Positions 16,292 to 63,308 of a stretch of DNA of 64,000 nt are shown in pieces (positions within the stretch are counted from its first letter, which is position 1; each line of letters starts with the position of its first letter). Below the pieces are notes generated by a model. It did no database searches. It was not told where the DNA came from and worked only from the letters and a program-made list of their open reading frames with translations. This stretch comes from a virus. A program made the position numbers and the translations under genes. Location of the stretch: the IMG/VR virus record IMGVR_UViG_3300021090_000723, positions 32,001 through 96,000 of that record; one strand, 5' to 3'.

Positions 16292-16381
16292 ATGCGCCTG
16301 TACGATTATTGCGTGTGGCTCGTGTTCGGGGGACCGCTTCTTCTCGCGATCCTGGTCGGCCTCATCAAGGTCTTCGCCTAG
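16292..16381 (+). CDS. Small hydrophobic peptide (29 aa), opposite strand to the late genes
   Basis: MRLYDYCVWLVFGGPLLLAILVGLIKVFA; AGGGA RBS; one TM helix. Confidence 0.55.
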   Translation: MRLYDYCVWLVFGGPLLLAILVGLIKVFA

Positions 16382-25300: not shown

Positions 25301-28300
25301 ACTTCTGGTTAAGCGCATCGCGGATGAGGTCGATGCCGCGGCGCGCGATCGACTTGCCCTCGGCGCGCGAGGTCGTCCAGTTGACCGACCAGGTCTGGGT
25401 GTTGGGCGCGGTGCCCTCCTGGGCAATGCGCACGTGCCAGGTCGCTTCCTTCGGCACGTATTCAACGATGGCCTCGGTCTCGAGCAGTTCGGAAATGAAC
25501 CCCTCGACGTCCGAGTTGGGAATCCACGGCGTGCCCATGCGCACCGCGATCTGAGACGGCTTCAGATCGACTGGCTGGACGACTTCGAGCGCCTTGACGT
25601 TCTCGGCCCACTCGGGCTCGCCCTTGGCAGCGTCACGCGCGAAGGCCAACTTTCCGCGCACGTTGCCCGAGAGATAGACCTCGGACGGCTCGTAGGCGCC
25701 GGTCGCCGGGTTCTTGAAGATGCGGCCCTTGAGTTCGTTGAGGAACGTGCTCGGCTGACGGCCCAGGATTTTTGCCATGTAGGGCACGTCGACTATGCCC
25801 TTCATGTTCATGGACGCGATCAGCGCCTCGTCCGGCGTGTTCACGCGGAGGATTTCGCGCGTCGGCTCGACCACGCGATCGGTGAAGATCGGGCCTTTGA
25901 TGCCCTCGTTCTTCTCTTCATCGAAGCGCTCGAGCGCGGAGACCAGCGCCGCGTCCGGATCGTCACGGAACGCCAGCATGTTCGGGTAGCGGCGGTATTC
26001 GCGCACCTCACCGTCCGGCATCGTGCGCCGGCTGATCTGAACCTGGTTGATGTAGCCGAACGCCTTGACGAACTGGGCGTAGAGTTTCCCCAGTTCCTTC
26101 TGCGGCGCGACCCACGGGGCCGTGCCCTTGCCTTCCCACTCGCCGCGCTGCGCGGTCAAGATCTCGCGGGCCTTGTCGCGGAGCCTGATGAGCAGGCGCA
26201 CGCGCCCGGCCTGGCCGTCGGAGAGTTCGACCGGCACGGAGGATTGCAGCACGCGCTGGAACAGCTTGCCGTCACGTTCGAAGAAGGCGTTGTCCTTCAC
26301 CGTGTCGGGCGGCGGCGCCAGGTCATCGTATGTGTCCACGTCCCCGGCCTCGGGATCGAAGCGGAGCGCGGACTTCTCCATCATGGCCTGGACGGCATTG
26401 GCGATCTTCTCGCGCAGGCCCGTTGCCGTTCCGGTAACGGTGTATTCGTCCTCGCGGTACATGCCGCGCGTGACGGCGTTCGTCCCCAGGATCATGTTGG
26501 GGTTGTCTTTGAAATACTGATTGACCGTCGCCGGGCTCGTGCCGACGCGGAACTCCTTGGCCTCCAGCCAATCCGGCTTCCCGGCAGGCTCGCCCTCCTT
26601 CCGCTTACGGATGAACAGGATGTCCGTGACGACTTGGGTCCCGGCGTTCTCCTTGAAGGCGGTGTTGGGGAGACGGATGGCGCCGATCAGGTCGCCGCCG
26701 GCGTCCCGGATCATGGTGCGCGCGGTCTTGTCCTGCGAGTCCATCGTGTAGCGGCTGGTCACGAGCGCAAGCACGCCGCCAGGTTTGACCAGCTTCAGGC
26801 TCTTGAAGATGAAGTAGTTGTGCAGGCTGAGCGGGCGGCCCTTATTGTACATCTTGTCGGCCGGGCGAATGTCGCCGAACGGCACGTTGCCGATGACAAG
26901 GTCCACGCTGTCTTCCGGAAGCGCGGTGTCCTCGAAGCCCTGCACGAAGATGCGCGCCTCGGGGTAGAGCGCTCGCGCGATCTTGCCGGTGACGTCGTCA
27001 AGCTCCACGCCGATGAACTTCGGATCGCTGCCCTTCGGGCGCATGCCCATGAAGTTGCCGATGCCCATGCCGGGTTCGAGCACGTTGCCCGAGCCGGTGA
27101 AGCCGAGTTCGGTCACGCCGTCCCAGATGCCGCGAACCACATCCTGGCTGGTGTAGTGCGCGTTGATGGTGGTCGCGCGAGCCGACGCGAACTGCTCCGG
27201 CGTCAGCATGGCCTTCAGCTGCTCGCGGTAGGGGATCAGGCCGTAGTCGAGCCCGCGGCCCTCATCGAAGATCTTGGCGAGGCCCGTGGCGCCCCAGCCC
27301 ACGTAATGGGCAAGCTGCTCCTGGTCCTCACGGCTGGCGAGTTGCCCGCCCTTCTCCAGGTCGAGAGCGACCCGGATGGCTTCGATGTTCTTGACGATGC
27401 GCTGGGCTGGACTGCCGGTGGCATAATCGGCGTCTTCAGCGATGCGGAAGTTTAGTCCTCGTATCCCCCGCTTGGCCCGATCCCCGAGGCTTCCCTCTCG
27501 CTCATCGGGAGATACTCCCTCAGGGCGTCCGACTCCGCCATCAGGAGGGCGCTCCGCTCCAGCTTGATCCGTCTCTCCAGAGGCTCGTCCTGGCTCACTT
27601 GCGGAAGTTGGCTGTTGACCCAGTTCGCTATCGATTCCGATAGGTCCTGGACCCTCTGCTCCAGCTTCCCCTCCGCCTTCAGGCCCGCGAACTCCTGTGG
27701 TCGGTGCACCCGCAGGTGCCCTTCCACCTTGCTCCGGTAGCTTTCCGGGCTGACCTTTTGCACGTTTTTCCCTTTCGAGCTCGGCCCAGCGCTTCGGAAT
27801 ATCGATCTTTTTGAGCGCTTCTTCAACTGCCTGCTTGGAGTCGGGCAGCGGCGTGTAGGTCTTTTCCTTGAGCGATCCGTCCTCGTTCCACTCCAGCTGG
27901 TCGAGCAGGCCGCGCCACATCAGGGCGAAATTGGCGCGCTCTTCCTCGGCGGGATAGGGCGTGCCGCGATAGCCGGCTTCCTTGGTCGTCTGGCCTTCCG
28001 CCACCCAGCCATTGACCAGGTAGGGCGAGGTCTGCCCCTTGGCGGCCAGTTCATCGTAGATGAAGGACTCGAACGAGCGCGCCCACAGTTCCTCGGGCCG
28101 CACCCAGTATTTGCCAAGCTCTTGGGCGTTGCGCTTGAACTTGGTCGTGAGCTTCGCGCTCCACCCCTCGTTCTGCCAAAGGTGGTCCACGTACTGCTCG
28201 GCGGTCTTGAGCGGGCCCAGGCCTTGCCTGCCCCGGATGTGCGACCGGCCGGTGAGCAGATTGTCGACCATCTTGATCGCACCCTCCACGTCCCAGGTGT

Positions 28301-31300
28301 GGGAGAGCGTGCCGTTGACGCTTGCGAGCAGGGCGCGCGCACTCTGACCGGCGGCCAGCAGCGCCTTCTTCTCGGCCTGGAGCGGCTTGACCTTGTCGGA
28401 CAACTCCATCGAGTTGATCGTGCCCTCGCGGTTCCGCTTCACCAGCGCCTCGATCTCCTTGTCGATCGCCGGGACCCGGACGCCGCCTGCGCGCAGGTTG
28501 AAGTCGAGCGCATGGCCCCATTCGTGCGACAGGGACCCGTCGCCCTTGGTCTTGGTCAGGTTGATGACGTTGGTGTCTGGCTCGTAGTGAGCGGAGCCGA
28601 ACCCAGATCCGCGCGAGCCGAACGCCAGGCCCAGCTTACCGCCGATGGAGATTGCCTTCGCTGGCACACCCATTATCTCGGCGAAGTCCATGAGCGCGTC
28701 GTAGGCGGCGTTGACGTGCGCCTGGCCCTCGCGGCCGGTGACCCAGTTCCCGAACTCGACGCCGCGGAAGCCGAAGGTCTTGCGGAAGTCCTCGGCCTTG
28801 ACGTTCTTGCCCGCCTTCCGGCGCTCGGGCAGGCCCGGGCGCGTGATGTCCTCGATCCGGATGCTCGGCCGCACGAGGGGCGTGGCGCGTGTCGGCATCG
28901 TGTTGTCGTCGCGGAAGTGGGGCAGGCCTTCGTCCAGGCGCCACAGGTTCGGCCACGAATAGTGGTGCAGGTACGGCCGCAACGTCTTCTGCGCCCAGTC
29001 CGTGGCGATGACGCGCGCCGACATGCCTTCCGGGCGCTGGACCTCTTTGACGATCAGGCGCTTGAGCGCGGCGTGGATGTCCTCGACGTTCTTCGCGCCG
29101 GCGAGCGCATCGCCCAGGATCTCCATCGCGCCGATGTATTCGGCGGCGTTCTCCAGGATGGTCTCGCGCTTCTCCTCCCAGCGCTTCTCCAGCGTCTTTC
29201 TGAACGGCGTGCGCCATTTGCCACGGCCGCCGCCCTGGTTCTTACCCTCCTGCTCGGTGAAGGTGACGAACGAGCGGGAGACGAAGTCGGCGAAGACGTG
29301 GGCGCCGGTCGTGGCGTCAGCCGCCAGGCGGGAGCGGAGGTCCCGCGCGTCCAGAGCCTGCTCGAGCATCTTGTCCAGATCCTCGATCTTCTCGACCTTG
29401 GCTTTGGCCTGGGCGCGCTTGCCCGCCATGGCCTCGCCCACGTCCGTCATCTTCGGCATGGGCGCGCGGCGGTCGGTGACCGGCTTCCTTGGTTCTTTGA
29501 CCGGCCTCTTCTCGGGCGCCTCGATTGTTTCACGTGAAACATCAACGGCCTGGGGCAGAATCGCGGTGGTCGTGTCGCCCTCTTCGATCCACCGTTTGAA
29601 GTCGGCCACGTTCATTTCGAGGCCGCCGTTCTTCCGGCGCTGCGGCCCCGAGCCGTCCGAGTACCCGGCGTCATAGACCGCGATGGCCTGCTCCGGGGTG
29701 TCGACCGCGGCGATGGCCTTGTGCTCATCGAACTTGCCGGTCTTCGGATCGTACTGATCGATGACGAAGACCTTGTCGCTCTTCAGGTTCGGTCCGAGGT
29801 AAATGTCCAGCTTTTCCTGCTGGTTAGGCGGGGCGTTCGGCTTCGCATCCGCACCGATCGAGCGCTTGATGTAGCCGTAGTCGGCCAGGATGTTGACGTT
29901 CGTCCAGATCGGCTTGCCGTCCTCGCCCTCGGGCCCAAGGCGATCCGTGCCCTTCGGCGTCTCGATAGTGATGTCCAGGCCGTTCCAGTTCTCGATGTGG
30001 CCCTTGGCGTAATTCCCAGCCTCGCGCTGCGCCTCGGTCGTCTCCTTGGCGACCGCGTCACGCGCCGGCTGGATGTCTTCCTCGGTCTCCGGACGCTTGA
30101 CGGGGTTGGTCTTGGTGCCTTCCGGCGCCCGGGCGACGTGCTTGATCTTCGCAAGCTGCTCTTTGGCGCTGGCGATGAGGCCGAGGGCGTCCCGCTTCGC
30201 AGAGTCGGGCCAGCTGCCCGACATTGCCCGCTCGACATAGCTGGTCACATAGGCCTTGGCTTCGTCCAGCGTGGCGAATTCGTTCGCGTGCGAGCCGCCC
30301 ATGCCGCCCGCTTGGCTGGTGATGTTGTACGAAATGCGCGGGACCGTGTAGCGGGCCTCCTGCGGGTCGTAGACGATCATAAACGCGAGGTTGCTGCTGC
30401 TCTTCTTCGCCTTGGCCGGGAGCAGTTTGCCGGTGTCGAGCACCACTTCGCCGCGCTCCATGACGGCCTCGTGCTCGTCCCGGGCGACCTTCTCGCGCGC
30501 CCTCCGGGCGTCGTGCTCGGCATCCTCGGCGGCGCGCTGGCTTTTGGCTTCCTTGGCGATCGTCGGCCACTTGTACTCAAGGTCGGACTGCTCGGCCTTC
30601 GCCTTCGCGATGTCCACTTTGTAGCGCTCGATCTGGCTCTTCCACGTGTCGAGGTTGATCTTGGATGGCTTCTTCGGTCCCGCCAGGGCCTCGTCCATGC
30701 GCTTCTGCGTCTCGGCCATGTTGTGCTGGTAGGCCGAGAGGTGGAATTCGCGCTGGCGGTAGTCGTCCAGATCCTGCGCCATCGGATGCTCGGGGGCTTC
30801 CGGCTGCTCGCGCTCCACCAGGTAGTCGCCAATGTCCTTGACCAGGTCCGGGAACTTCTTGCCGTACCACTCCAGGCGCAGGCCCTTGGCCGCGGCGCGC
30901 GCGGCGTAGATCGACTTGTCCCAGCCCGGCTCCGGGGTGAAGCGCTCTTCCTGCGCCTCTTCCTCGGCGCGATCGGCCTCCATCTGGACGATCTCGTCCG
31001 TGGTGGGCTCCATCACGTCTTCGCCGGACTTCTCGCCGGGCGCGAGTTCGCGCGCTGGCGGGGTTATGAGACCAGGCAGCGGCTCAACGGGACCTTCGCC
31101 TTCGCGTTGCGCCATGCGCCGGGCTTCATCGGCGCGCTCATCGGCAATGCGCGTTTCCAGCGCCGCGCGCATCAGCCCGGTTTTGGTGTCGTAGTTCCGG
31201 AGGATGTGCTCCTGGAACACATCGGCGGCTTCCACGCCGAACGAGTCGGCATAGGCGCCCCACCAGTTCACGAATTCCTCAGGGGCGGCGGTGAAGGCCT

Positions 31301-33665
31301 CCTTGGCCTCTTTATCGAGCCGGTCCTTGGCCTTGGCGTTCTTCGGCGGCTTGCCGGTGGCGGGATCGTTGCCCGAGTCGATGTAGGCCTGCGCCGCGCG
31401 CAGCTGGTTGATGGGCTCTTCGAAGTGCCGCAACGCCTCATCGTGGAAGGCGCGCAGCGTTTCGGTGCGCTCTTCCGGCGTCTCGGCCGGGTTCTCGTCC
31501 CAGAAGCCGGGGCGTCCGGCTTCGCGCAGCGCTTCATCCGCAGGCTCGGGGAACGTCTTCTTGAAGTCGAAGGGCAGTCGTTTGCCGCTCGACTTCTTGC
31601 CCTTTTCCTTGGCGAGATCGGCGGCCTCGCGCTCGATCTGGGCCATTTCCGCCTCGACGTCCTGGGCGGGCTTGGTGCCCGGCACGGTGAACGTCTCCTT
31701 GGGCGGCGTCTCCCTGATCCATTCCTCACTAGGCTCACCTGGCGGCTGGGTGAGATCGGCGCGCTTGACGTCGCCGGTCTTCACGTTGTGCCAGCCGATC
31801 TGGTTGTCCTCTTCGTCGAAGAGCGCTTGCCAGTCCTTGCCACGGGGCTTGGGCGGCATTTCTGCCTTCGGCGGCTGGGTTGGTGGCTTGGGCGGTGGCT
31901 CTGGAGCCTGTTCGGCCGCACCCGCTGGCGGCTCTCCTGGCGCGCCTGGGCGCTCCATCGTGGGCTCGACGCGCGGCTTTTCCGGCTCGCCCTCGCCCCG
32001 GACGAACGGGTGCGTGGCCGCCGCGATCGTGCCGCCCATCACGCCGCCGGTGAGGCCCGCGGCGATCACTGCGCGGGTGGCTTCACCGAACGTCATCTTC
32101 TCGTTCAGGATGCCCATGGAATAGCCGGTCTGGAGCACCTGGGTGAACATTTCCTGGATGCCTTCGGCGCCTGCCGCCTTGAGCGTGCGCGGCAGGAACT
32201 TCCCGCCCTCCTTGATGATGATCCCGAGCGGGATTTTCTCGCCGGCTGTTTCGGCGAAGGCCATGAACGCGCCGTCGAGCGCGGCCTGGGTGGGCGAGCG
32301 GCCGTTCTTGGCGGACTCGCTGTACTGCTCCAGGCCGACCTGGCTTCCCATCATGGCGAGGCCGATGGCCGGGCTTCTGGTCAGGATGGACGCGCCGACG
32401 GTCGCCAGCATGGGCACGCCGGACTCGATGGCGTTGAAGTAGACACCCTTGATGCTGAGTGGATCGAGGTCTTTCGGGGCGCTCTCCTCGAGATCCTTGA
32501 GCGCGGCGAAGGCGATCTTGCCGCCGATGGTGCTGCCAGCGTCCTTGACCGCCTTCTCGCGCGCGGCGAGCATGCCCTGGTACGCCTCTTCGACCTGTGG
32601 CGGCAGCTTGCCGGTGAACGGATTGACCTGTTCGATCGGATAAGGGACCGGGGCCTGGTCCATGGCGAGAATCGCGCCGCCGATCATGTTCTTCAGGTGC
32701 AGCGGCACGCGCTCGGCGGCCGCCATGGTCAGTTCACCGAAGCTGGGCCCGGGGTCCTTCTTGCCGATGCCCGCGATGAACGCGCGCGCCGCGCCGGCGC
32801 CGACGCCTTCCACGTCGGGTTGCTCGATGGGCTTGAACGGCTTCTGTTTGGCCGCGAACGCCTCGGCGGCCGCGGGCGTCTCGAACTTGCCCATGTGCTG
32901 GCCGGTCTGCTTGTAGCGCTCGATGATCGCTTCGTCTGACTCGCCCTCGGTCAGCTGCGGGAGCACGGTCTCCTTGAAGATGCCGTTCTCCGTGAACTCG
33001 AACGAGCGCGTGCCCGCAAAGTCGCCCTTGTAGTTGCCCGGTTCGAGCAGGCCCGGCTCCTGGCGCACGAAGTCCGGCTTGTCAGCGACCGCCTGCGGCG
33101 CAGCGGTGATCGGCTCTTCGGAAACGATCGCATACGGATCATCGCCGCCGGGCGGCGCAGCGGAGATCGCCGTCGGGTCGATCGGCTCTTCGGAAACGAT
33201 GGCATACGGGTCGTCCTGCGGCCCCTGAGACATTTGGACCACGCGCTGGACGTAGTCGTTCGTCTCCGGGAACGGGATCTGGGCGATGAACTCGGCTTCG
33301 CTGATCTCGCCCTTGCGCGGATCGCCCAGGCGGTTGAGCCAGCCTTCGAGCGCGCCCGGGCCAGCGTTGTAGGCCGCACCCGCGAGCGCCGGGCTTCCAT
33401 AGCGCTCAAGCATGGCGGCCGCATAGTCGACGCCTACGCGGTCAAGCTCTTCCGGAGTGTCGTTCGCCGCCGGGCGGACGCCAAAGCCCGGGTCCTTCGC
33501 GGTGCCCGGCATAACCTGCATTTCGGAGCGCGCGCCCTTGGGAGAGACCGCGTTGATCGGGCTCGCTTCCGCGCGCCGGATGATGCTGGGGAAATCGACA
33601 GGCGTGGGCGCGAGCCCTCCGCCGTCCATCGGTTCTTCCGAGACGACGTCCCATTCGTTGACCAT
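16365..33665 (-). CDS. Giant polyvalent virion/ejection protein (5766 aa): SLT transglycosylase, PPase-like, LPD1-like, N6-adenine MTase + SNF2 helicase (DarB-like), JAB-like, zincin, LPD38-like
   Basis: AVSPKGA..EMQVMP/AAYNAGPG/ET.DYV (SLT); ADYGYI...GAD..D.Y.GP...DEHK (PPase); FGFRGVEFGNW..HEWGHALD; VLEPGMGIGNF and GNVPFG (MTase); VGAGKT, DEAH, TGTPISN, QREGRIERQGN (SF2); HHNH.....S.AD (JAB); HEVIH; IEEIQSDWHQ; NFNRRG..LYLFYNASIQG. Confidence 0.9.
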   Translation of the reverse strand: MVNEWDVVSEEPMDGGGLAPTPVDFPSIIRRAEASPINAVSPKGARSEMQVMPGTAKDPGFGVRPAANDTPEELDRVGVDYAAAMLERYGSPALAGAAYNAGPGALEGWLNRLGDPRKGEISEAEFIAQIPFPETNDYVQRVVQMSQGPQDDPYAIVSEEPIDPTAISAAPPGGDDPYAIVSEEPITAAPQAVADKPDFVRQEPGLLEPGNYKGDFAGTRSFEFTENGIFKETVLPQLTEGESDEAIIERYKQTGQHMGKFETPAAAEAFAAKQKPFKPIEQPDVEGVGAGAARAFIAGIGKKDPGPSFGELTMAAAERVPLHLKNMIGGAILAMDQAPVPYPIEQVNPFTGKLPPQVEEAYQGMLAAREKAVKDAGSTIGGKIAFAALKDLEESAPKDLDPLSIKGVYFNAIESGVPMLATVGASILTRSPAIGLAMMGSQVGLEQYSESAKNGRSPTQAALDGAFMAFAETAGEKIPLGIIIKEGGKFLPRTLKAAGAEGIQEMFTQVLQTGYSMGILNEKMTFGEATRAVIAAGLTGGVMGGTIAAATHPFVRGEGEPEKPRVEPTMERPGAPGEPPAGAAEQAPEPPPKPPTQPPKAEMPPKPRGKDWQALFDEEDNQIGWHNVKTGDVKRADLTQPPGEPSEEWIRETPPKETFTVPGTKPAQDVEAEMAQIEREAADLAKEKGKKSSGKRLPFDFKKTFPEPADEALREAGRPGFWDENPAETPEERTETLRAFHDEALRHFEEPINQLRAAQAYIDSGNDPATGKPPKNAKAKDRLDKEAKEAFTAAPEEFVNWWGAYADSFGVEAADVFQEHILRNYDTKTGLMRAALETRIADERADEARRMAQREGEGPVEPLPGLITPPARELAPGEKSGEDVMEPTTDEIVQMEADRAEEEAQEERFTPEPGWDKSIYAARAAAKGLRLEWYGKKFPDLVKDIGDYLVEREQPEAPEHPMAQDLDDYRQREFHLSAYQHNMAETQKRMDEALAGPKKPSKINLDTWKSQIERYKVDIAKAKAEQSDLEYKWPTIAKEAKSQRAAEDAEHDARRAREKVARDEHEAVMERGEVVLDTGKLLPAKAKKSSSNLAFMIVYDPQEARYTVPRISYNITSQAGGMGGSHANEFATLDEAKAYVTSYVERAMSGSWPDSAKRDALGLIASAKEQLAKIKHVARAPEGTKTNPVKRPETEEDIQPARDAVAKETTEAQREAGNYAKGHIENWNGLDITIETPKGTDRLGPEGEDGKPIWTNVNILADYGYIKRSIGADAKPNAPPNQQEKLDIYLGPNLKSDKVFVIDQYDPKTGKFDEHKAIAAVDTPEQAIAVYDAGYSDGSGPQRRKNGGLEMNVADFKRWIEEGDTTTAILPQAVDVSRETIEAPEKRPVKEPRKPVTDRRAPMPKMTDVGEAMAGKRAQAKAKVEKIEDLDKMLEQALDARDLRSRLAADATTGAHVFADFVSRSFVTFTEQEGKNQGGGRGKWRTPFRKTLEKRWEEKRETILENAAEYIGAMEILGDALAGAKNVEDIHAALKRLIVKEVQRPEGMSARVIATDWAQKTLRPYLHHYSWPNLWRLDEGLPHFRDDNTMPTRATPLVRPSIRIEDITRPGLPERRKAGKNVKAEDFRKTFGFRGVEFGNWVTGREGQAHVNAAYDALMDFAEIMGVPAKAISIGGKLGLAFGSRGSGFGSAHYEPDTNVINLTKTKGDGSLSHEWGHALDFNLRAGGVRVPAIDKEIEALVKRNREGTINSMELSDKVKPLQAEKKALLAAGQSARALLASVNGTLSHTWDVEGAIKMVDNLLTGRSHIRGRQGLGPLKTAEQYVDHLWQNEGWSAKLTTKFKRNAQELGKYWVRPEELWARSFESFIYDELAAKGQTSPYLVNGWVAEGQTTKEAGYRGTPYPAEEERANFALMWRGLLDQLEWNEDGSLKEKTYTPLPDSKQAVEEALKKIDIPKRWAELEREKRAKGQPGKLPEQGGRAPAGAPTTGVRGPEGGGEAGAEGPGPIGIDSELGQQPTSASEPGRASGETDQAGAERPPDGGVGRPEGVSPDEREGSLGDRAKRGIRGLNFRIAEDADYATGSPAQRIVKNIEAIRVALDLEKGGQLASREDQEQLAHYVGWGATGLAKIFDEGRGLDYGLIPYREQLKAMLTPEQFASARATTINAHYTSQDVVRGIWDGVTELGFTGSGNVLEPGMGIGNFMGMRPKGSDPKFIGVELDDVTGKIARALYPEARIFVQGFEDTALPEDSVDLVIGNVPFGDIRPADKMYNKGRPLSLHNYFIFKSLKLVKPGGVLALVTSRYTMDSQDKTARTMIRDAGGDLIGAIRLPNTAFKENAGTQVVTDILFIRKRKEGEPAGKPDWLEAKEFRVGTSPATVNQYFKDNPNMILGTNAVTRGMYREDEYTVTGTATGLREKIANAVQAMMEKSALRFDPEAGDVDTYDDLAPPPDTVKDNAFFERDGKLFQRVLQSSVPVELSDGQAGRVRLLIRLRDKAREILTAQRGEWEGKGTAPWVAPQKELGKLYAQFVKAFGYINQVQISRRTMPDGEVREYRRYPNMLAFRDDPDAALVSALERFDEEKNEGIKGPIFTDRVVEPTREILRVNTPDEALIASMNMKGIVDVPYMAKILGRQPSTFLNELKGRIFKNPATGAYEPSEVYLSGNVRGKLAFARDAAKGEPEWAENVKALEVVQPVDLKPSQIAVRMGTPWIPNSDVEGFISELLETEAIVEYVPKEATWHVRIAQEGTAPNTQTWSVNWTTSRAEGKSIARRGIDLIRDALNQKSTVISWQDSEGKTHTDMNATIVAQEKQNDIKERFSKWIWKDPERGARLSRFYNDNFNNLRVATFNGDHLTLPGSSSTIELRSTQKKAVWRYLVSGNTLLDHLVGAGKTFTAIAAAMEAKRIGLLSKPLFSVPNHMLEQFSREFMQLYPNASILVADERAFAGDNRRRFVARAAAGNWDAIIMTHSSFERVGMSAKFQADYIRDEIAEYADLIRAARETDTGGRSPTVKQLEAAKKRREEKLRELMQAKDKDRGLSFEEMGVDGIFVDEAHLFKNLEFATKITNMNPPSSQRAFDLYLKTKYIDKMTPGRGLMFMTGTPISNSMAEMYTMQRYLQPRGLAERGLSHFDAWASTFGDTVTQAEITPEGGKAMLKTRFARFRNIPELISMYRQFSDLVSKDDLIATGQVKLPKISGGGPKTIIVPASDALKAYIAEIGERAEAVRKREVTPDEDNMLLISTDGRKASLDLRVVDPAARKEKVRKASEVASNAARIYKAGAKEKHTQIIFCDMSVPSNVAYSIYRDIKEELVKKGVNANDVAFVQDANTDQKKANLFADVRAGRKRILLGSTEKMGIGTNVQDRLKALHHVDPSWRPSDIEQREGRIERQGNTNEEIDLFRYVTEGSFDAYMWQTVERKARFINQIKRGDPSVREAEDIDEQVLSFAEAKALAAGNPLILDKAKADSDVDRLSRLRGAHYDNIHEMEWQIHRLPGEIAGMEEARGRVKADHAAYLERKDKPHYTILGTVYEKRVDASKALADIIEKAWNLQKSKNEAQGRKRNAEIEDIPIGKMYGFPISVEVDGYYQPQAVIHGKMTDKVELDLQSLKLGAISRIENFFKSRPGEIDYRQAKIDTAKKKLVDFKELVKVPFEREDQYQAALKRQRKIDQALGLIEADPQPVAGAPEPDLPPRRSAGFILSEAPGEGLGLAPPARPPRDEGMLARRIVEGNSDLADDLGKFVAKKKAKTPAAVNVAIGDWLRAFGERTKTEAAVAYDPATQTVIAAETSGKDTYVNLRGKIEDALSKPDARIVFHHNHTMPYGLSFADLTLLDLPGLDWMIAHTTEGQWHAARLTPETRRAFADLDLTLWSSPSDILNKMLQESQNAQGRVGRSLIRERGLDRNLAVANFSHNFAVGLARAGLIDYRSSVVVPESLAATFDTMAQAGAEAIASPLKAIGVVNVSDRGTAPTQFADGIAEILGEDQGLAVEPRGGAGEGARPEGVGRGLERLRLPQAPPVIETGDGVTFTFSPEFEAKREQLAADLRAYLVNRNLPLAVRVADAIADPEGHEADGHFDITKNLITIALDTKDPFGTITHEVIHGLRNLGFFTKSEWATLEAAAKDKWKRTFDIVGKYYKPDVQTEETIAFAAQNYEPSNEFAKAGLATKVLQRVRNFFEGLRNFFRGRGFQTPEDIFKRIESGRIGKRGKAGPTRSEAKFALKPQPPAPFFSTLARTIEASKQEKASGIQWQAFIKNARGITKDETEWTGVNEWLESQQGPVTKQALLDFIRENNVQIEEVEKGRAPGDDEGPYPENIEDWLPDEERTIQPEGQRYYSEMAFDADDASVTFHYDQRGVVTRVNAIRAGRELGDFGDFIEAREAIHRDAGIVAEGGATKFESQTLPGGENYRELLLTLPQIGVPFDPAKVRIERNRRSTTQGDVTVFYGDHKVGTWDDPIVLNSVTKKYEGPNDAHWIDVMRRRYPGDRSLAIDALSGQFRSGHFDEANILAHVRFKDRADADGKRVLFIEEIQSDWHQKGRRQGYSVKETRSPVFSIFDDQGELVGTRPTLDQAQEFIRDKHGRRPAWNRDDQAPMDTTNWTIKEGEAIEKRTGVPDAPFKSTWHEIALKRMLRYAAENGYDRLAWTTGAQQAERYNLAKHVNSLRLTDNVSGGIGRPRMDGPFERGHLIAYGKRNEEAINRQIESRDDLAELVGAELADKLLAVTPVEGRSAGLGVRVREISGLDLTVGGEGMKGFYDRIVPQFLNRYAKKWDAKVGTTKIDTGKESEPSWTVAETHPQKKQGVIDVHSLDVTPAMRESVMEGQGLFARRMPPGANAFTMFTDSPQPSVVDYLRNSNLSLMERLKGAASLSAINASFDKWRVGFQDRYLKVARMQAAIEQMLGRPLTEEENAYLAEELSSGRKGAKLEDLFERQIRPLVLAMHERGISREELETFLYARHAPERNARINEINPKFREEGIAGSGMSDEDARGIMDEVDKTGRRADFDALAGMVDDVLAFALNTRVEAGLMSEEQAEAWRATYRDYVPLRGVAELDPEVEADRPRPGKGFDVKGKESHRAFGRQSPARDILAYAFMQAEEAIIRGENNRIGNAIYELAKAAPNENFWKVDKVAMRPVWIKARQEVQYWPVRRILAEDAPYTLSTKIDGQEHRITFNRNNPVARDLAQGLKGLGQDQISLLIRNFGAINRILSHVNTTLNPEFVITNAFRDAQTALSNIQAHGDIKGITKGTVKDYRKALVASSRSAFKAEPGKTLMPWMAKDQAEWDRWAQEFRENGGRVYFNQMEDVLELRKRLDGQMREIGTSKLNPIMAMKTLGRIIENTNIGVENAIRLSAYKNARERGFTPAKAASLAKNLTVNFNRRGSWGPLMNSLYLFYNASIQGTATLLTAWKSPRVRKVAAFAVLTGFLLDFLNAFVSDEDDDGQLLYDKVTPFDKSRNLIVMTPSEGGVAAKIPLPYGYNIFYGVGRSIAEVMRGKDPLESAGNLAITIMDSFNPVGGAQNLLNMIAPTTMDPVVDLFMNKDYAGRPIAPEQSQYGPQVPNSQRYWNSVSPAYKAVTDFLSTASGGTGVEPGLIEISPEWLDYGFGVAWGAAGTFYERNFLDLPMKFADPTSTITFNDIPFVRRVVTSKPPWIDKATFYERINKIEQSRAYARDYQREGRRPEARGFVQENRAMLSLYNDANNARTELSEIRASRAQAKMALEQGRMARPRYNEQVRILNEAEERIIRMFNAEYLERTRRRP
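21620..21769 (-). CDS. Nested overprinted small gene (49 aa) in +1 frame of the giant ORF
   Basis: GGAG-7 nt-ATG; MYLIEEPPPLSSPMALRRFLARTKDLPSSPEVEQARARAQKALEEALKD; GC3 bias shifts to this frame. Confidence 0.6.
   Translation of the reverse strand: MYLIEEPPPLSSPMALRRFLARTKDLPSSPEVEQARARAQKALEEALKD
27452..27763 (-). CDS. Nested overprinted gene (103 aa) in +1 frame of the giant ORF; TnpV-like helical protein
   Basis: AAGGGA RBS before GTG; Y.....HL..HRP.....L...GKL pattern; nested frame is GC3-rich while the host frame is a Gly/Pro/Glu linker. Confidence 0.75.
   Translation of the reverse strand: MQKVSPESYRSKVEGHLRVHRPQEFAGLKAEGKLEQRVQDLSESIANWVNSQLPQVSQDEPLERRIKLERSALLMAESDALREYLPMSEREASGIGPSGGYED
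29526..29541. promoter_or_regulatory. parS: Perfect chromosomal-type parS site
   Basis: TGTTTCACGTGAAACA, 16/16 match to the bacterial parS consensus palindrome; encodes VSRET in the giant ORF. Confidence 0.85.
33109..33215. repeat. Direct repeat (about 35 nt, 72-nt period) encoding DDPYAIVSEEPI twice
   Basis: ATCGGCTCTTCGGAAACGAT at 33109 and 33181; a third degenerate copy (WDVVSEEP) at the N-terminus. Confidence 0.8.
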
Positions 33666-38215: not shown

Positions 38216-38240
38216 AACGAGACGGTGACGATGCGAAAGG

Positions 38241-38315
38241 TGGCAGCTGCTGAGGGAGTCGAACCCTACGTCCCCGGAGTCAAAGTCCGGTGCCCTACCG
38301 TTAGACCAAGCAGCC
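38241..38315 (-). tRNA. trnQ: tRNA-Gln(UUG)
   Basis: CCGGA-CT TTG AC-TCCGG; TTCGA T-loop; CCA end. Confidence 0.92.
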
Positions 38316-38316
38316 G

Positions 38317-38392
38317 TGGCGCGCCCAGGGGGAGTCGAACCCTCCGTTTGCCGATTGAGAATCGGCGTTCCTGACCGTTAGAAGATGGGCGC
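38317..38392 (-). tRNA. trnE: tRNA-Glu(CUC)
   Basis: GCCGA-TT CTC AA-TCGGC; CCA end. Confidence 0.92.
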
Positions 38393-38394
38393 AT

Positions 38395-38468
38395 TGGCGC
38401 AGCTGCGGGGAATCGAACCCCGGTTGTCGGAGTGAAAATCCGCTCTCCGGCCACTAGAGGACAGCTGC
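38395..38468 (-). tRNA. trnE: tRNA-Glu(UUC)
   Basis: GCGGA-TT TTC AC-TCCGA; CCA end. Confidence 0.9.
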
Positions 38469-38471
38469 GAT

Positions 38472-38545
38472 TGGCGAGGGTGCGACGAATCGAACGCCGG
38501 TCATCGGGTTTGGAAGCCGAGGCCCTACCACTGGGCGACACCCCC
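38472..38545 (-). tRNA. trnW: tRNA-Trp(CCA)
   Basis: TCGGC-TT CCA AA-CCCGA (C31-C39 mismatch); G73; CCA end. Confidence 0.85.
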
Positions 38546-38550
38546 TGAAG

Positions 38551-38624
38551 TGGTGCGGACGGAGAGGATCGAACTCTCACCCCCGGGTTGGAAGCCCGGT
38601 ACTCTGCCGTAGAGCTACGTCCGC
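38551..38624 (-). tRNA. trnG: tRNA-Gly(UCC)
   Basis: CCGGG-CT TCC AA-CCCGG; A73; CCA end. Confidence 0.92.
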
Positions 38625-38625
38625 G

Positions 38626-38696
38626 TGCGGGTCGCCGGAATCGAACCGGCATCAGCGGAGTGGCACTCCGCGGCCCAGCCAATAGACCAGACCCGC
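38626..38696 (-). tRNA. trnG: tRNA-Gly(GCC), no encoded CCA
   Basis: GCGGA-GT GCC AC-TCCGC. Confidence 0.88.
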
Positions 38697-38701
38697 AAAA
38701 A

Positions 38702-38776
38702 TGGACATGCGCGCCGGAATCGAACCGGCTCATCGCGATTTTGCAGACCGCCGCGTTCCCACCTCGCCCGCGCATG
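38702..38776 (-). tRNA. trnC: tRNA-Cys(GCA)
   Basis: GCGGT-CT GCA AA-ATCGC; U73; CCA end. Confidence 0.9.
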
Positions 38777-38819
38777 CAAGCATCCAGTTCAGTTTGCGAA
38801 ATTTCGATATTTCGATATT

Positions 38820-38893
38820 TGGCGACCCCACATGGATTTGAACCACGATTTCCAGAGTCAGAGTCTGGCGGCCTACCGTTGGCCGATGGAGCC
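38820..38893 (-). tRNA. trnQ: tRNA-Gln(CUG)
   Basis: CCAGA-CT CTG AC-TCTGG; CCA end. Confidence 0.92.
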
Positions 38894-38900
38894 TTGGAAA

Positions 38901-38977
38901 TGGTTGCGGGGGTCGGAATCGAACCGACGACGCCTGCGCCTTCAACGCAGCGCTCTACCGGACTGAGCTACCCCGCC
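38901..38977 (-). tRNA. trnF: tRNA-Phe(GAA)
   Basis: CTGCG-TT GAA GG-CGCAG; G1-A72 mismatch; CCA end. Confidence 0.9.
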
Positions 38978-38995
38978 AAGAGGCAGCGCGTTGGC

Positions 38996-39043
38996 TTATC
39001 GCCAACAACCTCGTTCGGGAAATCGTTGCTGTCGATTGAGCAT
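38996..39043 (-). CDS. tRNA-block leader peptide D: MLNRQQRFPERGCWR
   Basis: ATG CTC AAT CGA CAG CAA CGA TTT CCC GAA CGA GGT TGT TGG CGA TAA; lists N,Q,Q,F,E,G,C,W, the amino acids of the surrounding tRNA block. Confidence 0.8.
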   Translation of the reverse strand: MLNRQQRFPERGCWR

Positions 39044-39048
39044 GCCAA

Positions 39049-39123
39049 TGGCTGCGGAGGACGGGCTCGAACCGCCGACCTCGCACTTAACAGGCGCTCG
39101 CTCTACCACTGAGCTACTCCGCA
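39049..39123 (-). tRNA. trnN: tRNA-Asn(GUU)
   Basis: AGCGC-CT GTT AA-GTGCG; G73; CCA end. Confidence 0.92.
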
Positions 39124-39147
39124 CTGCCGTCTCCATTGGTTGGCCCA

Positions 39148-39195
39148 CCAGGTGGGCGAGGCGCCGGTTTTGTCAACCGGGCCCCGAAATGTCAA
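39148..39195 (-). promoter_or_regulatory. Putative promoter of tRNA block D
   Basis: Two TTGACA hexamers (39195-39190 and 39176-39171); -10 poorly conserved. Confidence 0.55.
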
Positions 39196-39208
39196 GCAGA
39201 GTGTAAAG

Positions 39209-39284
39209 TGGCGTCCCCGGTAGGAATCGAACCCACGTCTGGCCGGATTAGAAGTCCGGTGCCTTTCCGCTAGGCTACGGGGAC
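39209..39284 (-). tRNA. trnR: tRNA-Arg(UCU)
   Basis: CCGGA-CT TCT AA-TCCGG; CCA end. Confidence 0.92.
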
Positions 39285-39286
39285 GT

Positions 39287-39361
39287 TGGAGGACCAGGCG
39301 GGGCTCGAACCCGCAACCGTTCGATTAAAAGTCGACTGCACCACCATCGTGCTGCTGGTCC
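39287..39361 (-). tRNA. trnK: tRNA-Lys(UUU)
   Basis: GTCGA-CT TTT AA-TCGAA; C8; CCA end. Confidence 0.9.
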
Positions 39362-39362
39362 G

Positions 39363-39434
39363 TGAACCGGGTGGGACTTGAACCCACAACCATCGGATTA
39401 AGAGTCCGCCGCACCACCATCGTGCTGCCGGTTC
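39363..39434 (-). tRNA. trnK: tRNA-Lys(CUU), no encoded CCA
   Basis: GCGGA-CT CTT AA-TCCGA; D-arm identical to Lys(UUU). Confidence 0.88.
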
Positions 39435-39465
39435 AAAACGATCGCCGACTATAGTCGGCGGAAGT

Positions 39466-39540
39466 TGGCGTGCGCGGAGGGAGTCGAACCCACAGCTTCC
39501 AGATTCGTAATCTGGCGCTCTTCCGTTGAGCTTCGCGCAC
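39466..39540 (-). tRNA. trnR: tRNA-Arg(ACG)
   Basis: CCAGA-TT ACG AA-TCTGG; A8; CCA end. Confidence 0.92.
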
Positions 39541-39544
39541 AAAC

Positions 39545-39619
39545 TGGCGTTCCCGGGTGGATTCGAACCACCGCCCTTCAGATCCGGAATCTGACGCTCC
39601 TCCGCTGAGCCACGGGAAC
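39545..39619 (-). tRNA. trnR: tRNA-Arg(CCG)
   Basis: TCAGA-TT CCG GA-TCTGA; CCA end. Confidence 0.92.
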
Positions 39620-39649
39620 AAGTCAAAAATCGCCACATCTGACGTAAAC

Positions 39650-39724
39650 TGGCGCGCGTTAGGGGTATCGAACCCCTGACCTTCCGGTTGACAACCGGGT
39701 GCTCTCCCTCTGAGCTAAACGCGC
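39650..39724 (-). tRNA. trnD: tRNA-Asp(GUC)
   Basis: CCCGG-TT GTC AA-CCGGA; G73; CCA end. Confidence 0.92.
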
Positions 39725-39728
39725 AGTC

Positions 39729-39805
39729 TGGTCGCAGGGGCTGGGATCGAACCAGCGCATGACGCCCTTATGAGGGGCGGGCCTTTCCAGCTTGGCTACC
39801 CTGCG
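39729..39805 (-). tRNA. trnM: tRNA-Met(CAU) elongator (or Ile2)
   Basis: CGCCC-CT CAT AA-GGGCG; paired 1:72; CCA end. Confidence 0.85.
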
Positions 39806-39877
39806 TCGTTCTGGATGGTCTCGAACCACCGTCCTCACGATTATCGGTCGCGCGCTCTACCACTGAGCTACAGAACG
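39806..39877 (-). tRNA. trnI: tRNA-Ile(GAU), no CCA, abuts tRNA-Met with zero spacer
   Basis: CGCGA-CC GAT AA-TCGTG (C33). Confidence 0.85.
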
Positions 39878-39881
39878 TCAT

Positions 39882-39956
39882 TGGTACGCGCAGAGGGGAT
39901 CGAACCCACCGTTTCCGGGTCCACAACCCAGCGTCCTTCCATTGGACGATGCGCGC
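39882..39956 (-). tRNA. trnH: tRNA-His(GUG), alphaproteobacterial type
   Basis: CTGGG-TT GTG GA-CCCGG; no G-1; G1-U72; A73; CCA end. Confidence 0.92.
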
Positions 39957-39960
39957 GAAT

Positions 39961-40037
39961 TGGTCTGAGCGGCAGGATTCGAACCTGCGTGTACCTGGTC
40001 CCAAACCAGGTGCGTGACCAGGCTACGCTACGCTCAG
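39961..40037 (-). tRNA. trnP: tRNA-Pro(UGG)
   Basis: CCTGG-TT TGG GA-CCAGG; C1-G72; CCA end. Confidence 0.92.
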
Positions 40038-40042
40038 GAAAA

Positions 40043-40119
40043 TGGTCGCCCCTGCACGGAATCGAACCTGCGACCTCCCGGGTGTAGGCCGGGCACTCTA
40101 CCAGCTGAGCTAAGGGGCG
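40043..40119 (-). tRNA. trnV: tRNA-Val(UAC)
   Basis: CCCGG-CC TAC AC-CCGGG (C33); one-base T-stem bulge; CCA end. Confidence 0.85.
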
Positions 40120-40171
40120 GCGCGGTGAACGGGGGAGCGGGCGTGGGCCCGCGGTGAGGGACGAGGTCGCC

Positions 40172-40249
40172 TTAGGCGACGACTATCCTATGCGGTCGAA
40201 TGGACATTCGCCGCTTTCTTGGATCTCGTGGTTTGAGAACCGTGCTCAT
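40172..40249 (-). CDS. tRNA-block leader peptide C: MSTVLKPRDPRKRRMSIRPHRIVVA
   Basis: ATG AGC ACG GTT CTC AAA CCA CGA GAT CCA AGA AAG CGG CGA ATG TCC ATT CGA CCG CAT AGG ATA GTC GTC GCC TAA; contains V,P,H,I,M,D,R,K, all downstream tRNA identities. Confidence 0.8.
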   Translation of the reverse strand: MSTVLKPRDPRKRRMSIRPHRIVVA

Positions 40250-40257
40250 GGCCGGGG

Positions 40258-40286
40258 TGTATGACGGATCATCTTGTTGTCGTCAA
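40258..40286 (-). promoter_or_regulatory. Promoter of tRNA block C (leaderless start)
   Basis: TTGACG-17 nt-CATACA, 8 nt before the leader ATG. Confidence 0.65.
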
Positions 40287-40294
40287 CAACGTGA

Positions 40295-40381
40295 TGGTCG
40301 GAGCGGAGGGATTCGAACCCTCTAGCCGCAAGCGGACCGGATTTACAGTCCGGCGCAACCCACCGTCTTTGCCGCGCTCCG
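40295..40381 (-). tRNA. trnY: tRNA-Tyr(GUA)
   Basis: CCGGA-CT GTA AA-TCCGG; long variable arm; C1-G72; CCA end. Confidence 0.92.
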
Positions 40382-40417
40382 TATATCAAACAGGCCGTTT
40401 CGGTATACGTTTGAGAT

Positions 40418-40499
40418 TGGTAGGCCCGGAGAGATTTGAACTCTCACGCCGAGGCGCCTGCTTCTGAGGCAGGTGTGTCTGCCGTTCCACCACGGGCCC
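40418..40499 (-). tRNA. trnL: tRNA-Leu(CAG)
   Basis: CCTGC-CT CAG AA-GCAGG; variable arm; CCA end. Confidence 0.92.
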
Positions 40500-40501
40500 A
40501 C

Positions 40502-40578
40502 TGGTAGGCGCGGAGAGACTCGAACTCTCAGATGTCGGGATTTAACGCCGATGCGTCTGCCGATTCCGCCACGCGCCC
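40502..40578 (-). tRNA. trnL: tRNA-Leu(UAA) lacking the long variable arm
   Basis: Leu-type D-arm GTGGCGGAATCGGCAGACGC; TCGGC-GT TAA AT-CCCGA; 5-nt variable loop; CCA end. Confidence 0.8.
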
Positions 40579-40585
40579 GAGAAGC

Positions 40586-40627
40586 TCAGGCAAGTCGTAA
40601 GGTGCGGTATCGTAGGTTCGTGCGCAT
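40586..40627 (-). CDS. tRNA-block leader peptide B: MRTNLRYRTLRLA
   Basis: ATG CGC ACG AAC CTA CGA TAC CGC ACC TTA CGA CTT GCC TGA; Leu x3 and Tyr ahead of Leu, Leu, Tyr tRNAs. Confidence 0.75.
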   Translation of the reverse strand: MRTNLRYRTLRLA

Positions 40628-40633
40628 GCGATC

Positions 40634-40666
40634 CTTCTTGCATTTCCCCGCGCGGCTGTCTACAGA
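40634..40666. promoter_or_regulatory. Overlapping divergent promoters for tRNA blocks A (+) and B (-)
   Basis: + strand TTGCAT-17-TACAGA (40638-40666); - strand TAGACA (40662-40657) with weak -10. Confidence 0.55.
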
Positions 40667-40675
40667 GCGGCCACC

Positions 40676-40738
40676 ATGTTCCGAACGCGAACCACTCGAG
40701 CGGCACGAGCCGCAACACGATCAAGTTCCTCTTCCTGA
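40676..40738 (+). CDS. tRNA-block leader peptide A: MFRTRTTRAARAATRSSSSS
   Basis: ATG TTC CGA ACG CGA ACC ACT CGA GCG GCA CGA GCC GCA ACA CGA TCA AGT TCC TCT TCC TGA; Thr/Ala/Ser ahead of Ser, Ser, Ala, Thr tRNAs. Confidence 0.82.
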   Translation: MFRTRTTRAARAATRSSSSS

Positions 40739-40741
40739 TAC

Positions 40742-40829
40742 GGAAGGGTGGCAGAGTGGTTTATTGCGGCGCACTGCTAACGCGCCGGACCTGAAGGTCC
40801 CGTAGGTTCGAATCCTATCCCTTCCGCCA
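40742..40829 (+). tRNA. trnS: tRNA-Ser(GCU)
   Basis: GCGCA-CT GCT AA-CGCGC; long variable arm; G73; CCA end. Confidence 0.92.
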
Positions 40830-40834
40830 ATCTC

Positions 40835-40923
40835 GGATGGGTCCGCTGCGTGGGCGGCAACCGGCTTCGAATACCGGCATGGGGTCCGTCAGGGCAGGGG
40901 TTCAACTCCTCACCCATCCGCCA
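40835..40923 (+). tRNA. trnS: tRNA-Ser(CGA), probable 8/4 fold
   Basis: CCGGC-TT CGA AT-ACCGG; acceptor GGATGGGT/ACCCATCC (8 bp); 4-bp T-stem; G73; CCA end. Confidence 0.8.
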
Positions 40924-40942
40924 ATCTTCCAGATCAGGATAA

Positions 40943-41017
40943 GGGCTCGTAGCTCAGCGGGAGAGCACCGGCTTTGCATACCGGGTGTCGTGGGTTCGAT
41001 TCCCACCGGGTCCACCA
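40943..41017 (+). tRNA. trnA: tRNA-Ala(UGC)
   Basis: CCGGC-TT TGC AT-ACCGG; G3-U70; CCA end. Confidence 0.92.
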
Positions 41018-41027
41018 GTTTGGAAAT

Positions 41028-41104
41028 GCCGGCGTAGCTCAGATGGTAGAGCAGTGTCTTTGTAATTCACAGGTCGCGGGTTCGAGTCCTCGCCGCCGGC
41101 TCCA
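41028..41104 (+). tRNA. trnT: tRNA-Thr(UGU), weak anticodon stem
   Basis: GTGTC-TT TGT AA-TTCAC; GCCGGCG acceptor; CCA end. Confidence 0.82.
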
Positions 41105-63231: not shown

Positions 63232-63308
63232 TGGTTGCGCAGGAGGGATTTGAACCCCCGACCTTCAGCTTATGAGGCTGACGAGCTACCGGGCTGCTCC
63301 ACCGCGCC
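63232..63308 (-). tRNA. trnM: tRNA-Met(CAU), initiator-like
   Basis: fMet-type D-arm TGGAGCAGCCCGGTAGCTCG; TTCAAAT T-loop; 1:72 mismatch; TCAGC-CT CAT AA-GCTGA; CCA end. Confidence 0.9.

Follow-up and report, generated by a model that had tools for sequence, protein, structure and literature searches.

Short reading frames matched to the tRNA blocks of a phage tRNA array as putative leader ORFs

The sequence analysed here is a stretch of 64,000 nucleotides, referred to as the window, that covers positions 32,001 to 96,000 of IMG/VR record IMGVR_UViG_3300021090_000723. The source record is 104.9 kb in length, is 88% complete, has a GC content of approximately 64%, and belongs to an uncultured phage. 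An array of 28 tRNA genes is located at positions 38241 to 41104 of the window, with 24 genes on the minus strand and four on the plus strand. ARAGORN and Rfam are concordant for this array. Four short open reading frames (ORFs) beginning with ATG, designated A to D, are located in the spacers of the array, and every tRNA identity of a block is represented in the peptide encoded by that block's own ORF.

The minus- and plus-strand tRNA genes diverge from a 163-nucleotide spacer at positions 40579 to 40741, as delimited by ARAGORN. The array serves all 20 amino acids, and any given amino acid is confined to a single block. Block A contains Ser(GCT), Ser(CGA), Ala(TGC), and Thr(TGT), and block B contains Leu(TAA), Leu(CAG), and Tyr(GTA). 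Block C is composed of Val, Pro, His, Ile, Met, Asp, Arg, Arg, Lys, Lys, and Arg. The block D unit begins with Asn and continues with nine further tRNAs, from Phe through Gln. Five spacers of at least 60 nucleotides exist on the tRNA-oriented sides. The initial annotation had divided the array into four blocks, each with a mini-ORF. The four ORFs do exist, but the division is less regular than described: there are five such spacers, the tRNA-Asn gene stands alone between spacers of 85 and 71 nucleotides, and the 85-nucleotide Asn-Arg spacer (39124 to 39208) contains no ATG ORF of its own.

ORF A (40676 to 40738, plus strand) has 20 codons and heads Ser, Ser, Ala, and Thr. In all residue counts given here the initiator Met is left out. 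Ser, Ala, and Thr make up 13 of the 19 residues of ORF A, which also contains five CGA codons and ends 3 nucleotides before its first tRNA. ORF B (40586 to 40627, minus strand) has 13 codons, heads Leu, Leu, and Tyr, and ends 7 nucleotides before its first tRNA; Leu and Tyr account for four of its 12 residues. ORF C (40172 to 40249, minus strand) has 25 codons and heads the 11-tRNA block from Val through Arg. Amino acids of its own block account for 19 of its 24 residues, and none belongs to the block D set. The spacer around ORF C is strongly structured (z -3.8).

ORF D (38996 to 39043, minus strand) has 15 codons and is located in the 71-nucleotide spacer between tRNA-Asn and tRNA-Phe, with its ATG 5 nucleotides past the CCA of tRNA-Asn. 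Own-block amino acids make up eight of its 14 residues (Asn, Phe, two Gln, Cys, Gly, Trp, and Glu), which is the full repertoire of tRNA-Asn and the nine downstream tRNAs. ORF D contains four CGA codons.

The coordinates and translations of the four ORFs agree exactly with the initial annotation, which had also listed residues that occur only in peptide D, only in C, or only in B; that list is correct, as is the statement that each peptide covers its own block. Hardly any other ATG ORF on the strand of the tRNAs is contained entirely within a spacer, so there is little room for selective choice among alternatives. No exact entry for the mini-ORFs or for the longer frames overlapping them was found in a collection of 15 billion proteins. 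A paralogy check found no sequence homology among the four. The possibility that they are paralogues was rejected on this basis, and the regularities they have in common are thus independent and not inherited from one repeat.

The match between peptide and block was compared with several null models. Over the four ORFs, own-block amino acids account for 44 of the 69 residues. When the 20 amino acids were randomly partitioned into blocks of 3, 2, 8, and 7 with the peptides held fixed, 18.5 +/- 4.0 residues matched; the maximum in 2e6 partitions was 39, and none reached 44 (p < 5e-7). With the blocks held fixed and the spacers shuffled with dinucleotide composition preserved, each leader is enriched for its own block, with P values of 0.0014 (A), 0.0086 (B), 0.0078 (C), and 0.0063 (D) and a combined Fisher value of approximately 1e-6. 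Shuffling of the ORF interiors alone gave 7.5e-4 (A), 0.14 (B), 1.2e-3 (C), and 9.3e-3 (D).

Coverage, meaning that every amino acid of the block is present in the peptide, was considered separately. A shuffled spacer contains a correctly oriented ATG ORF with full coverage with a probability of 0.20 for A, 0.15 for B, 0.036 for C, and 7e-5 for D. Among 9.98e8 partitions of the 20 amino acids, 179 satisfy coverage. In the window, the D set is covered by only one of 1362 real ATG ORFs, which is ORF D itself. The coverage criterion alone therefore carries weight mainly on ORF D.

A uniform procedure was also applied to the window and to nine GenBank phage arrays. For each block of at least three amino acids, the best ORF within 700 nucleotides upstream was taken, and its own-block residues were expressed as a z value against shuffles. 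A gap limit of 400 nucleotides misses the leaders of the Caulobacter phages described below, and the 700-nucleotide version was used instead. The window gave P values of 0.002, 0.004 (ORF C), and 0.002, the value of 0.002 being the floor of the test. Eight other phages, from Ruegeria, Mycobacterium, Streptomyces, Xanthomonas, Vibrio (two phages), Stenotrophomonas, and Synechococcus hosts, gave 29 tests, all with P > 0.06. These control tests indicate that the procedure is calibrated and that the signal is real but not universal. The link between ORF and block is a real feature of the array and lies far beyond chance.

Two further regularities are shared by the four ORFs. The first is the use of the Arg codon CGA, which accounts for 14 of the 69 in-frame codons; no codon was seen more than 11 times in 20000 shuffles (P < 5e-5). 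As a trinucleotide, CGA occurs 16 times within the ORFs, and 14 of these occurrences are in frame. In the real genes of the phage, CGA makes up 5% of Arg codons and occurs approximately three times per 1000 codons. Arg has a 27% share of the four peptides.

The second is a stable hairpin that contains the stop codon in all four ORFs, with P values against shuffles of 0.041 (A), 0.031 (B), 0.004 (C), and 0.022 (D) and a Fisher value of 9e-5. The last sense codons, most of them for own-block amino acids, form the 5' arm of the hairpin; they encode Ser-Ser-Ser in A, Val-Val-Ala in C, and Gly-Cys-Trp in D. The stop codon of ORF A is in the hairpin loop, and tRNA-Ser contributes its 5' acceptor strand as the 3' arm. 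That of ORF B is in the stem of a hairpin that takes in the first 5 nucleotides of tRNA-Leu. ORF C has its stop codon TAA in the loop of a 6-base-pair GC hairpin, and the TAA of ORF D is likewise in a hairpin loop. A structure analysis of the spacers identified no competing second helix for the stop hairpins. The shared in-frame CGA codons and stop hairpins of the four frames suggest, as features read from sequence, a translated regulatory element.

Candidate promoters are present ahead of three of the ORFs, with TTGACA-like hexamers 35 to 38 nucleotides before the ATG of A, B, and C. The divergent control region of A and B (40579 to 40675, both strands) contains such hexamers on both strands, 38 nucleotides upstream of the ATG of A and 35 nucleotides upstream of that of B, and these putative promoters overlap face to face around the palindrome CCGCGCGG. 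The palindrome is located at positions 40650 to 40657, at the centre of the divergent region, and is possibly a regulator site. The region upstream of ORF C (40250 to 40294, minus strand) reads TTGACG, 17 nucleotides, CATACA, 8 nucleotides, and ATG, and is a putative promoter. Two TTGACA hexamers without mismatch and two strong hairpins (z -2.7) are present in the Asn-Arg spacer (39124 to 39208, minus strand), the likely promoter region of the Asn through Gln unit. ORF B is the only leader with a Shine-Dalgarno-like sequence, a moderate AAGGA.

An upstream ORF of eight codons (40246 to 40272, minus strand) overlaps the ATG of ORF C by the sequence ATGA. Six of its seven residues after the Met are block C amino acids.

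Sites with a terminator-like hairpin followed by a T-run number just two, at 39460 to 39443 and 39644 to 39631 on the minus strand. Both are inside block C, and their number is not above that in shuffles. They fall at the Arg/Lys and Asp/Arg junctions and could subdivide block C into three units. A search with Rfam at E <= 1 returned only tRNAs and sub-threshold unrelated families, mostly on tRNA genes, one of which reaches the D spacer; the T-box covariance model had no match in the spacers. Decayed tRNAs were considered as a source of the spacers and were rejected, as only short fragments resembling T-arms or anticodon arms are present and no spacer has an Rfam tRNA match. Within block C, the tRNA with a CAT anticodon (39729 to 39805, minus strand) overlaps tRNA-Ile(GAT) by one base and may be a lysidine-type tRNA-Ile2 instead of a tRNA-Met. 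Among the codons of ORF C are an internal ATG and an ATA.

Comparable arrangements were identified in two Caulobacter phage records, RBC63 (PV231352.1) and CcrBL9 (MH588546.1). In RBC63, an ORF of 31 codons with eight consecutive Gln, Phe, Val, or Ile codons lies approximately 210 nucleotides upstream of the block Phe-Val-Ile-Ile-Val-Gln-Gln-Ile. TTGACC-N17-TAGCTT-N7 stands before it, and a canonical GC hairpin and U-tract come after it. A second, annotated RBC63 ORF of 45 codons consists almost entirely of Ala, Leu, Ser, Thr, Lys, Pro, and His. It lies ahead of a block that runs from Pro to Thr, Lys, Leu, His, and Ala, and a terminator is present. In the uniform procedure RBC63 gave a P value of 0.016. 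When the two phages were compared, the P values were 0.014 for RBC63 and 0.005 for CcrBL9, whose homologous leader is ahead of the block Val-Ile-Val-Gln-Asn-Arg-Phe. Own-block amino acids make up 33 of the 38 residues of CcrBL9 gp149. The gp149 unit also shows covariation: it has both a Trp residue in the leader and a tRNA-Trp in the block, and both are missing in the corresponding RBC63 unit.

Like the window, the Caulobacter cassettes have an upstream mini-ORF composed mostly of the amino acids of its block. Their ATG lies 7 to 9 nucleotides after a -10-like hexamer, comparable to the 8 nucleotides that separate CATACA from the ATG of ORF C. They differ in three respects. The Caulobacter leaders use the common GC-ending codons of the phage and codons read by the anticodons of the block, whereas the window leaders contain rare A/T-ending codons and CGA. 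The Caulobacter leaders are followed by the canonical GC hairpin and U-tract, whereas the window leaders have no U-tract terminator. The Caulobacter leaders are located 100 to 200 nucleotides before the first tRNA, whereas those of the window abut the tRNAs. In these records, an unrelated phage group thus displays leader peptides ahead of tRNA blocks in the layout of a classical attenuator, and covariation is seen at least once.

One part of the RBC63 locus is annotated inconsistently. At 4159 to 4340 of the flipped locus, ARAGORN predicts two tRNAs of class-II length (87 and 90 nucleotides, with a long variable arm) as Lys CTT and Lys TTT, while the record annotates Leu and Lys. Ser and Lys are both abundant in the leader ahead of these tRNAs.

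No RNA run is among the sequencing runs listed as containing the stretch. Contigs of four sequencing runs were compared with the window array. Identical pieces of the array were found in two further samples, which indicates that the sequence is natural, and related arrays with approximately 85 to 92% identity are present in runs X3, X7, and X8. The X7 variant has an in-frame tandem duplication of 9 nucleotides after position 39015, within ORF D, that adds Gly-Phe-Pro. The X3 variant is a 151-nucleotide contig that matches only positions 40172 to 40262 (ORF C and 13 nucleotides) with 14 substitutions and no gaps. In the X8 contig, homology extends from tRNA-His up to position 40250, one base past the ATG of ORF C; 181 unrelated nucleotides then replace the 40 nucleotides from 40251 to 40290, and tRNA-Tyr follows. 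The X8 array seems to be rearranged. These variants, with homology limits that fall at the ends of ORF C, are compatible, if weakly, with a conserved unit in which the reading frame would be preserved.

Relatives found through the flanking gene in IMG/VR and the JGI metagenomes all lack the array, and patterns of anticodon-loop order (Asn-Phe-Gln; Val-Pro-His) gave chance matches only, with no tRNAs. A 22-nucleotide tRNA-Tyr pattern had no match in viral or genome contig collections, and overlap of GenBank phages with the array is limited to single tRNAs.

The array is flanked by two virion-module genes. The closest relative by the flanking gene, JGI contig Ga0193708_1000223 (84% identical), aligns with the window up to position 41112 and resumes at 38225. 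The exact slot of the array is filled there by an ORF of 264 amino acids (8766 to 9560 of that contig) with a lower GC content and holds no tRNAs. Complete 64-kb relatives also lack the array. The array is thus a cassette in a variable slot, and the slot between two conserved genes is a hot spot for cargo exchange. In the same virion-gene region, a single ORF of 5766 amino acids (16365 to 33665, minus strand; GC content at third codon positions, GC3, 0.86) spans 17 kb. The sole tRNA gene beyond the array is a tRNA-Met(CAT) at 63232 to 63308 on the minus strand, and the genome therefore offers no further block outside the sample. In the approximately 50 nucleotides downstream of this tRNA-Met is a purine-rich (CAGCAGAAG)-like triplet repeat that extends to the next ATG.

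The reading favoured here, with moderate confidence and from sequence comparison, is that the four mini-ORFs are probably translated, cis-acting leader ORFs that gauge the decoding of their block's amino acids and set the output of the tRNAs. Since the leaders are written mainly in codons for own-block amino acids, the time that a ribosome needs to pass through a leader would report how well those amino acids are decoded. This transit time would then set the output of the downstream tRNA genes. No canonical intrinsic terminator is present. The initial annotation had proposed multiplex sensors in which stalling on a depleted codon switches on the block. Of that proposal, the link of each ORF to its block is retained and lies far beyond chance, and the CGA codons and hairpins shared by the four frames point to a translated regulatory element; the anatomy of a classical attenuator is not found.

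Several observations weigh against the leader-ORF reading. ORF D is located downstream of tRNA-Asn, inside its unit and not ahead of the block, and the precursor is presumably polycistronic and rapidly processed. Shine-Dalgarno pairing is absent for A, C, and D (-2.5, -1.1, and +0.7 kcal/mol, respectively, versus a median of -8 in the confident genes of the phage). A scan for the sigma-70 consensus returned zero promoters by its criteria, and the leaderless starts are accordingly putative. In the stretches that separate each ORF from its tRNAs, neither a U-tract terminator nor a recognisable antiterminator was found. The GC3 of the mini-ORFs is 30 to 58%, versus approximately 85% in the real genes of the phage. 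Pairing between leader and acceptor strand is not significant as a stand-alone signal (P 0.09 and 0.69). In addition, the pattern was picked post hoc from a scan of many windows.

The fit at the level of codons is also poor. The phage anticodons GCU and CGA decode only one of five Ser codons (AGT), and only one of three Leu codons (TTA) is read by the anticodons of the block. Of the Val codons GTT, GTC, and GTC, between zero and one is read by the anticodon UAC. Informative codons overall match the block anticodons at approximately the chance rate; a codon-level fit is present in block D (8 of 8) and for Pro, Lys, and Arg in block C. This mismatch is a poor fit to a device that calls up a replacement tRNA for the stalled codon, and that part of the earlier proposal fails for Ser, Leu, and Val. 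The wide sampling of synonymous codons that was taken to support it is accurate in its codon lists, but a sequence not tuned in any way would give the same.

The alternative that survives best is that the ORFs are translated without any sensing of depletion. Ribosomes would shield the long, untranslated precursor from Rho or RNases, or would open the stop hairpin so as to let the first tRNA fold. As the leaders use amino acids of the block, this would act as a feed-forward device, in which available tRNA allows more to be made, or as a coupling to overall translational capacity. In ORFs A and B, C outnumbers G (C/G ratios of 1.6 and 1.9), as is the case in Rho loading sites, and the missing terminator and the many codons that are not read by the phage's own tRNAs would be expected. 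In addition, the ORFs stand directly next to the tRNAs and form stop hairpins in which the acceptor strand takes part; a ribosome reaching the end would free the tRNA, with a sign opposite to that of classical attenuation. That acceptor pairing, however, is not significant alone, and shielding by itself does not need a block-specific amino acid content. Known leaders of the trp, his, and ilv type, as well as the leaderless Cys short ORFs discussed below, act by stalling that relieves repression, and the Caulobacter cassettes have what appears to be the leader-plus-terminator anatomy of the stalling type. Shielding is considered rather unlikely for these reasons.

Less probable still is coincidence, in which the spacers are promoters with processing or stabilising hairpins, the ORFs are never translated, and the pattern is a chance product of a very large scan. 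The lack of Shine-Dalgarno sequences in A, C, and D, a GC3 and codon usage resembling non-coding DNA, the missing terminator, the chance-level codon match, and the empty result in eight other phage arrays would all fit such an origin. It would nevertheless have to produce three independent regularities (block content, in-frame CGA, and stop hairpins, with the significance values given above) in four non-homologous ORFs, from a set with almost no alternative ORFs to choose from. The control arrays show a calibrated test, and the principle recurs, with covariation, in the Caulobacter phages. Coincidence is accordingly given little weight. It is very improbable that the peptides themselves are the product, as four small, basic, Arg-rich binders of RNA or tRNA (for example chaperones or antitermination factors), since their high Arg content, which recalls the Arg-rich motifs of lambda N and similar peptides that bind RNA hairpins, is partly expected of GC-rich DNA in any frame, their block-specific composition would be left unexplained, they share no sequence, and the 15-billion-protein collection holds no exact entry for them.

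For the leader-ORF reading, a putative mechanism can be outlined. The AUG codons would be at or within a few nucleotides of the 5' end of the RNA, placed there by promoters for A, B, and C and by 3' processing of tRNA-Asn for D. Leaderless initiation of this kind would explain the missing Shine-Dalgarno sequences. CGA, a rare and slow Arg codon, would slow the transit of the ribosome. A ribosome that lingers on the terminal own-block codons would keep the stop hairpin open, while a fast ribosome would leave and allow it to form. In A and B, the hairpin would sequester the first tRNA's 5' acceptor strand and so govern its folding and RNase P processing, and an open hairpin would free the strand. 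In C and D, the stop hairpin may serve as a pause, termination, or processing signal that is removed by the lingering ribosome.

A more far-reaching reading, considered rather unlikely, is ribosome sensing without a terminator, acting on tRNA maturation and not on the termination of transcription. Four leaderless mini-ORFs, slowed by CGA, would inventory all 20 amino acids, and dwell time on the last own-block codons would control the hairpin and hence the folding or processing of the next tRNA. Such a device might top up failing tRNA sets, for instance once a host anticodon nuclease has attacked. The tie to host anticodon nucleases is purely speculative.

Phage tRNA arrays are usually viewed as constitutive, passively processed precursors. 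The role of phage tRNAs, in codon usage or as spares against host defences that cleave tRNA, is still debated. If the leader-ORF reading is true, phages would adjust their tRNA supply on demand, and ribosome-mediated attenuation would extend from genes for amino acid synthesis and tRNA synthetases to genes for tRNA. Lacking a terminator, the array also raises the question of how the output of an RNA that is not translated could depend on a stalled ribosome. Its four short leaders, all 20 amino acids, and easily mutated reporter designs make it a compact test case. No account of tRNA genes under the control of leader peptides was found in literature searches, and the statement of the initial annotation that it knew of none for phage tRNA arrays is upheld to that extent. 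The sensing principle itself is known; its application to tRNA genes, seen also in the Caulobacter phages, is unpublished as far as could be found.

The attenuators of amino acid operons provide the most familiar comparison. Those of ilvGMEDA (Ile, Val, and Leu), thr (Thr and Ile), trpL, hisL, and pheL likewise have a short 5' ORF containing one or several amino acids linked to the function of the operon, and charged tRNA is sensed there, too, by the ribosome. These attenuators regulate biosynthetic enzymes, whereas the window leaders head tRNAs. The window leaders also contain up to eight block amino acids, mostly once to a few times each and without runs, except for five Ser. Compared with the trpL, hisL, and ilvL type, the ORF is upstream of the regulated genes in A, B, and C, whereas D is behind its first tRNA, Asn. 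Codon enrichment for the linked amino acids is present at the amino acid level but not at the anticodon level. The Rho-independent terminator between leader and genes is absent, the 1:2, 2:3, and 3:4 alternative pairings were not found in the window, and three of the four window ORFs lack a Shine-Dalgarno sequence.

T-box riboswitches likewise sense the status of tRNA in order to control genes of the decoding pathway. They do so by direct binding of the uncharged tRNA through a specifier codon and the T-box sequence, and no translation is involved.

The nearest logic that has been shown experimentally is that of the mycobacterial leaderless polycysteine short ORFs (Ms5788A and others of the "Cys ribulon"), in which a stalled ribosome blocks a local RNA duplex with no classical terminator (Canestrari et al., bioRxiv 10.1101/834739). 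The likeness lies in unannotated short ORFs that are free of Shine-Dalgarno sequences and begin at the 5' end of the RNA, the 5' ends in the window being predicted from hexamer spacing, and in the presence of several independent leaders, which in the mycobacterial case make up a ribosome-directed regulon. In the Cys ribulon, the structure hides the ribosome-binding site of a protein gene, whereas the tRNAs downstream in the window have no such site. The window analogue of the duplex would be the stop hairpin of A and B, in which the tRNA acceptor strand takes part; this pairing is not significant alone. The Cys ribulon senses one amino acid, whereas the four window leaders jointly cover all 20. 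Set beside these known systems, the array is distinguished by its four leaders for 20 amino acids, its CGA punctuation, a hairpin at every stop codon, the lack of a terminator, and one leader that stands behind a tRNA.

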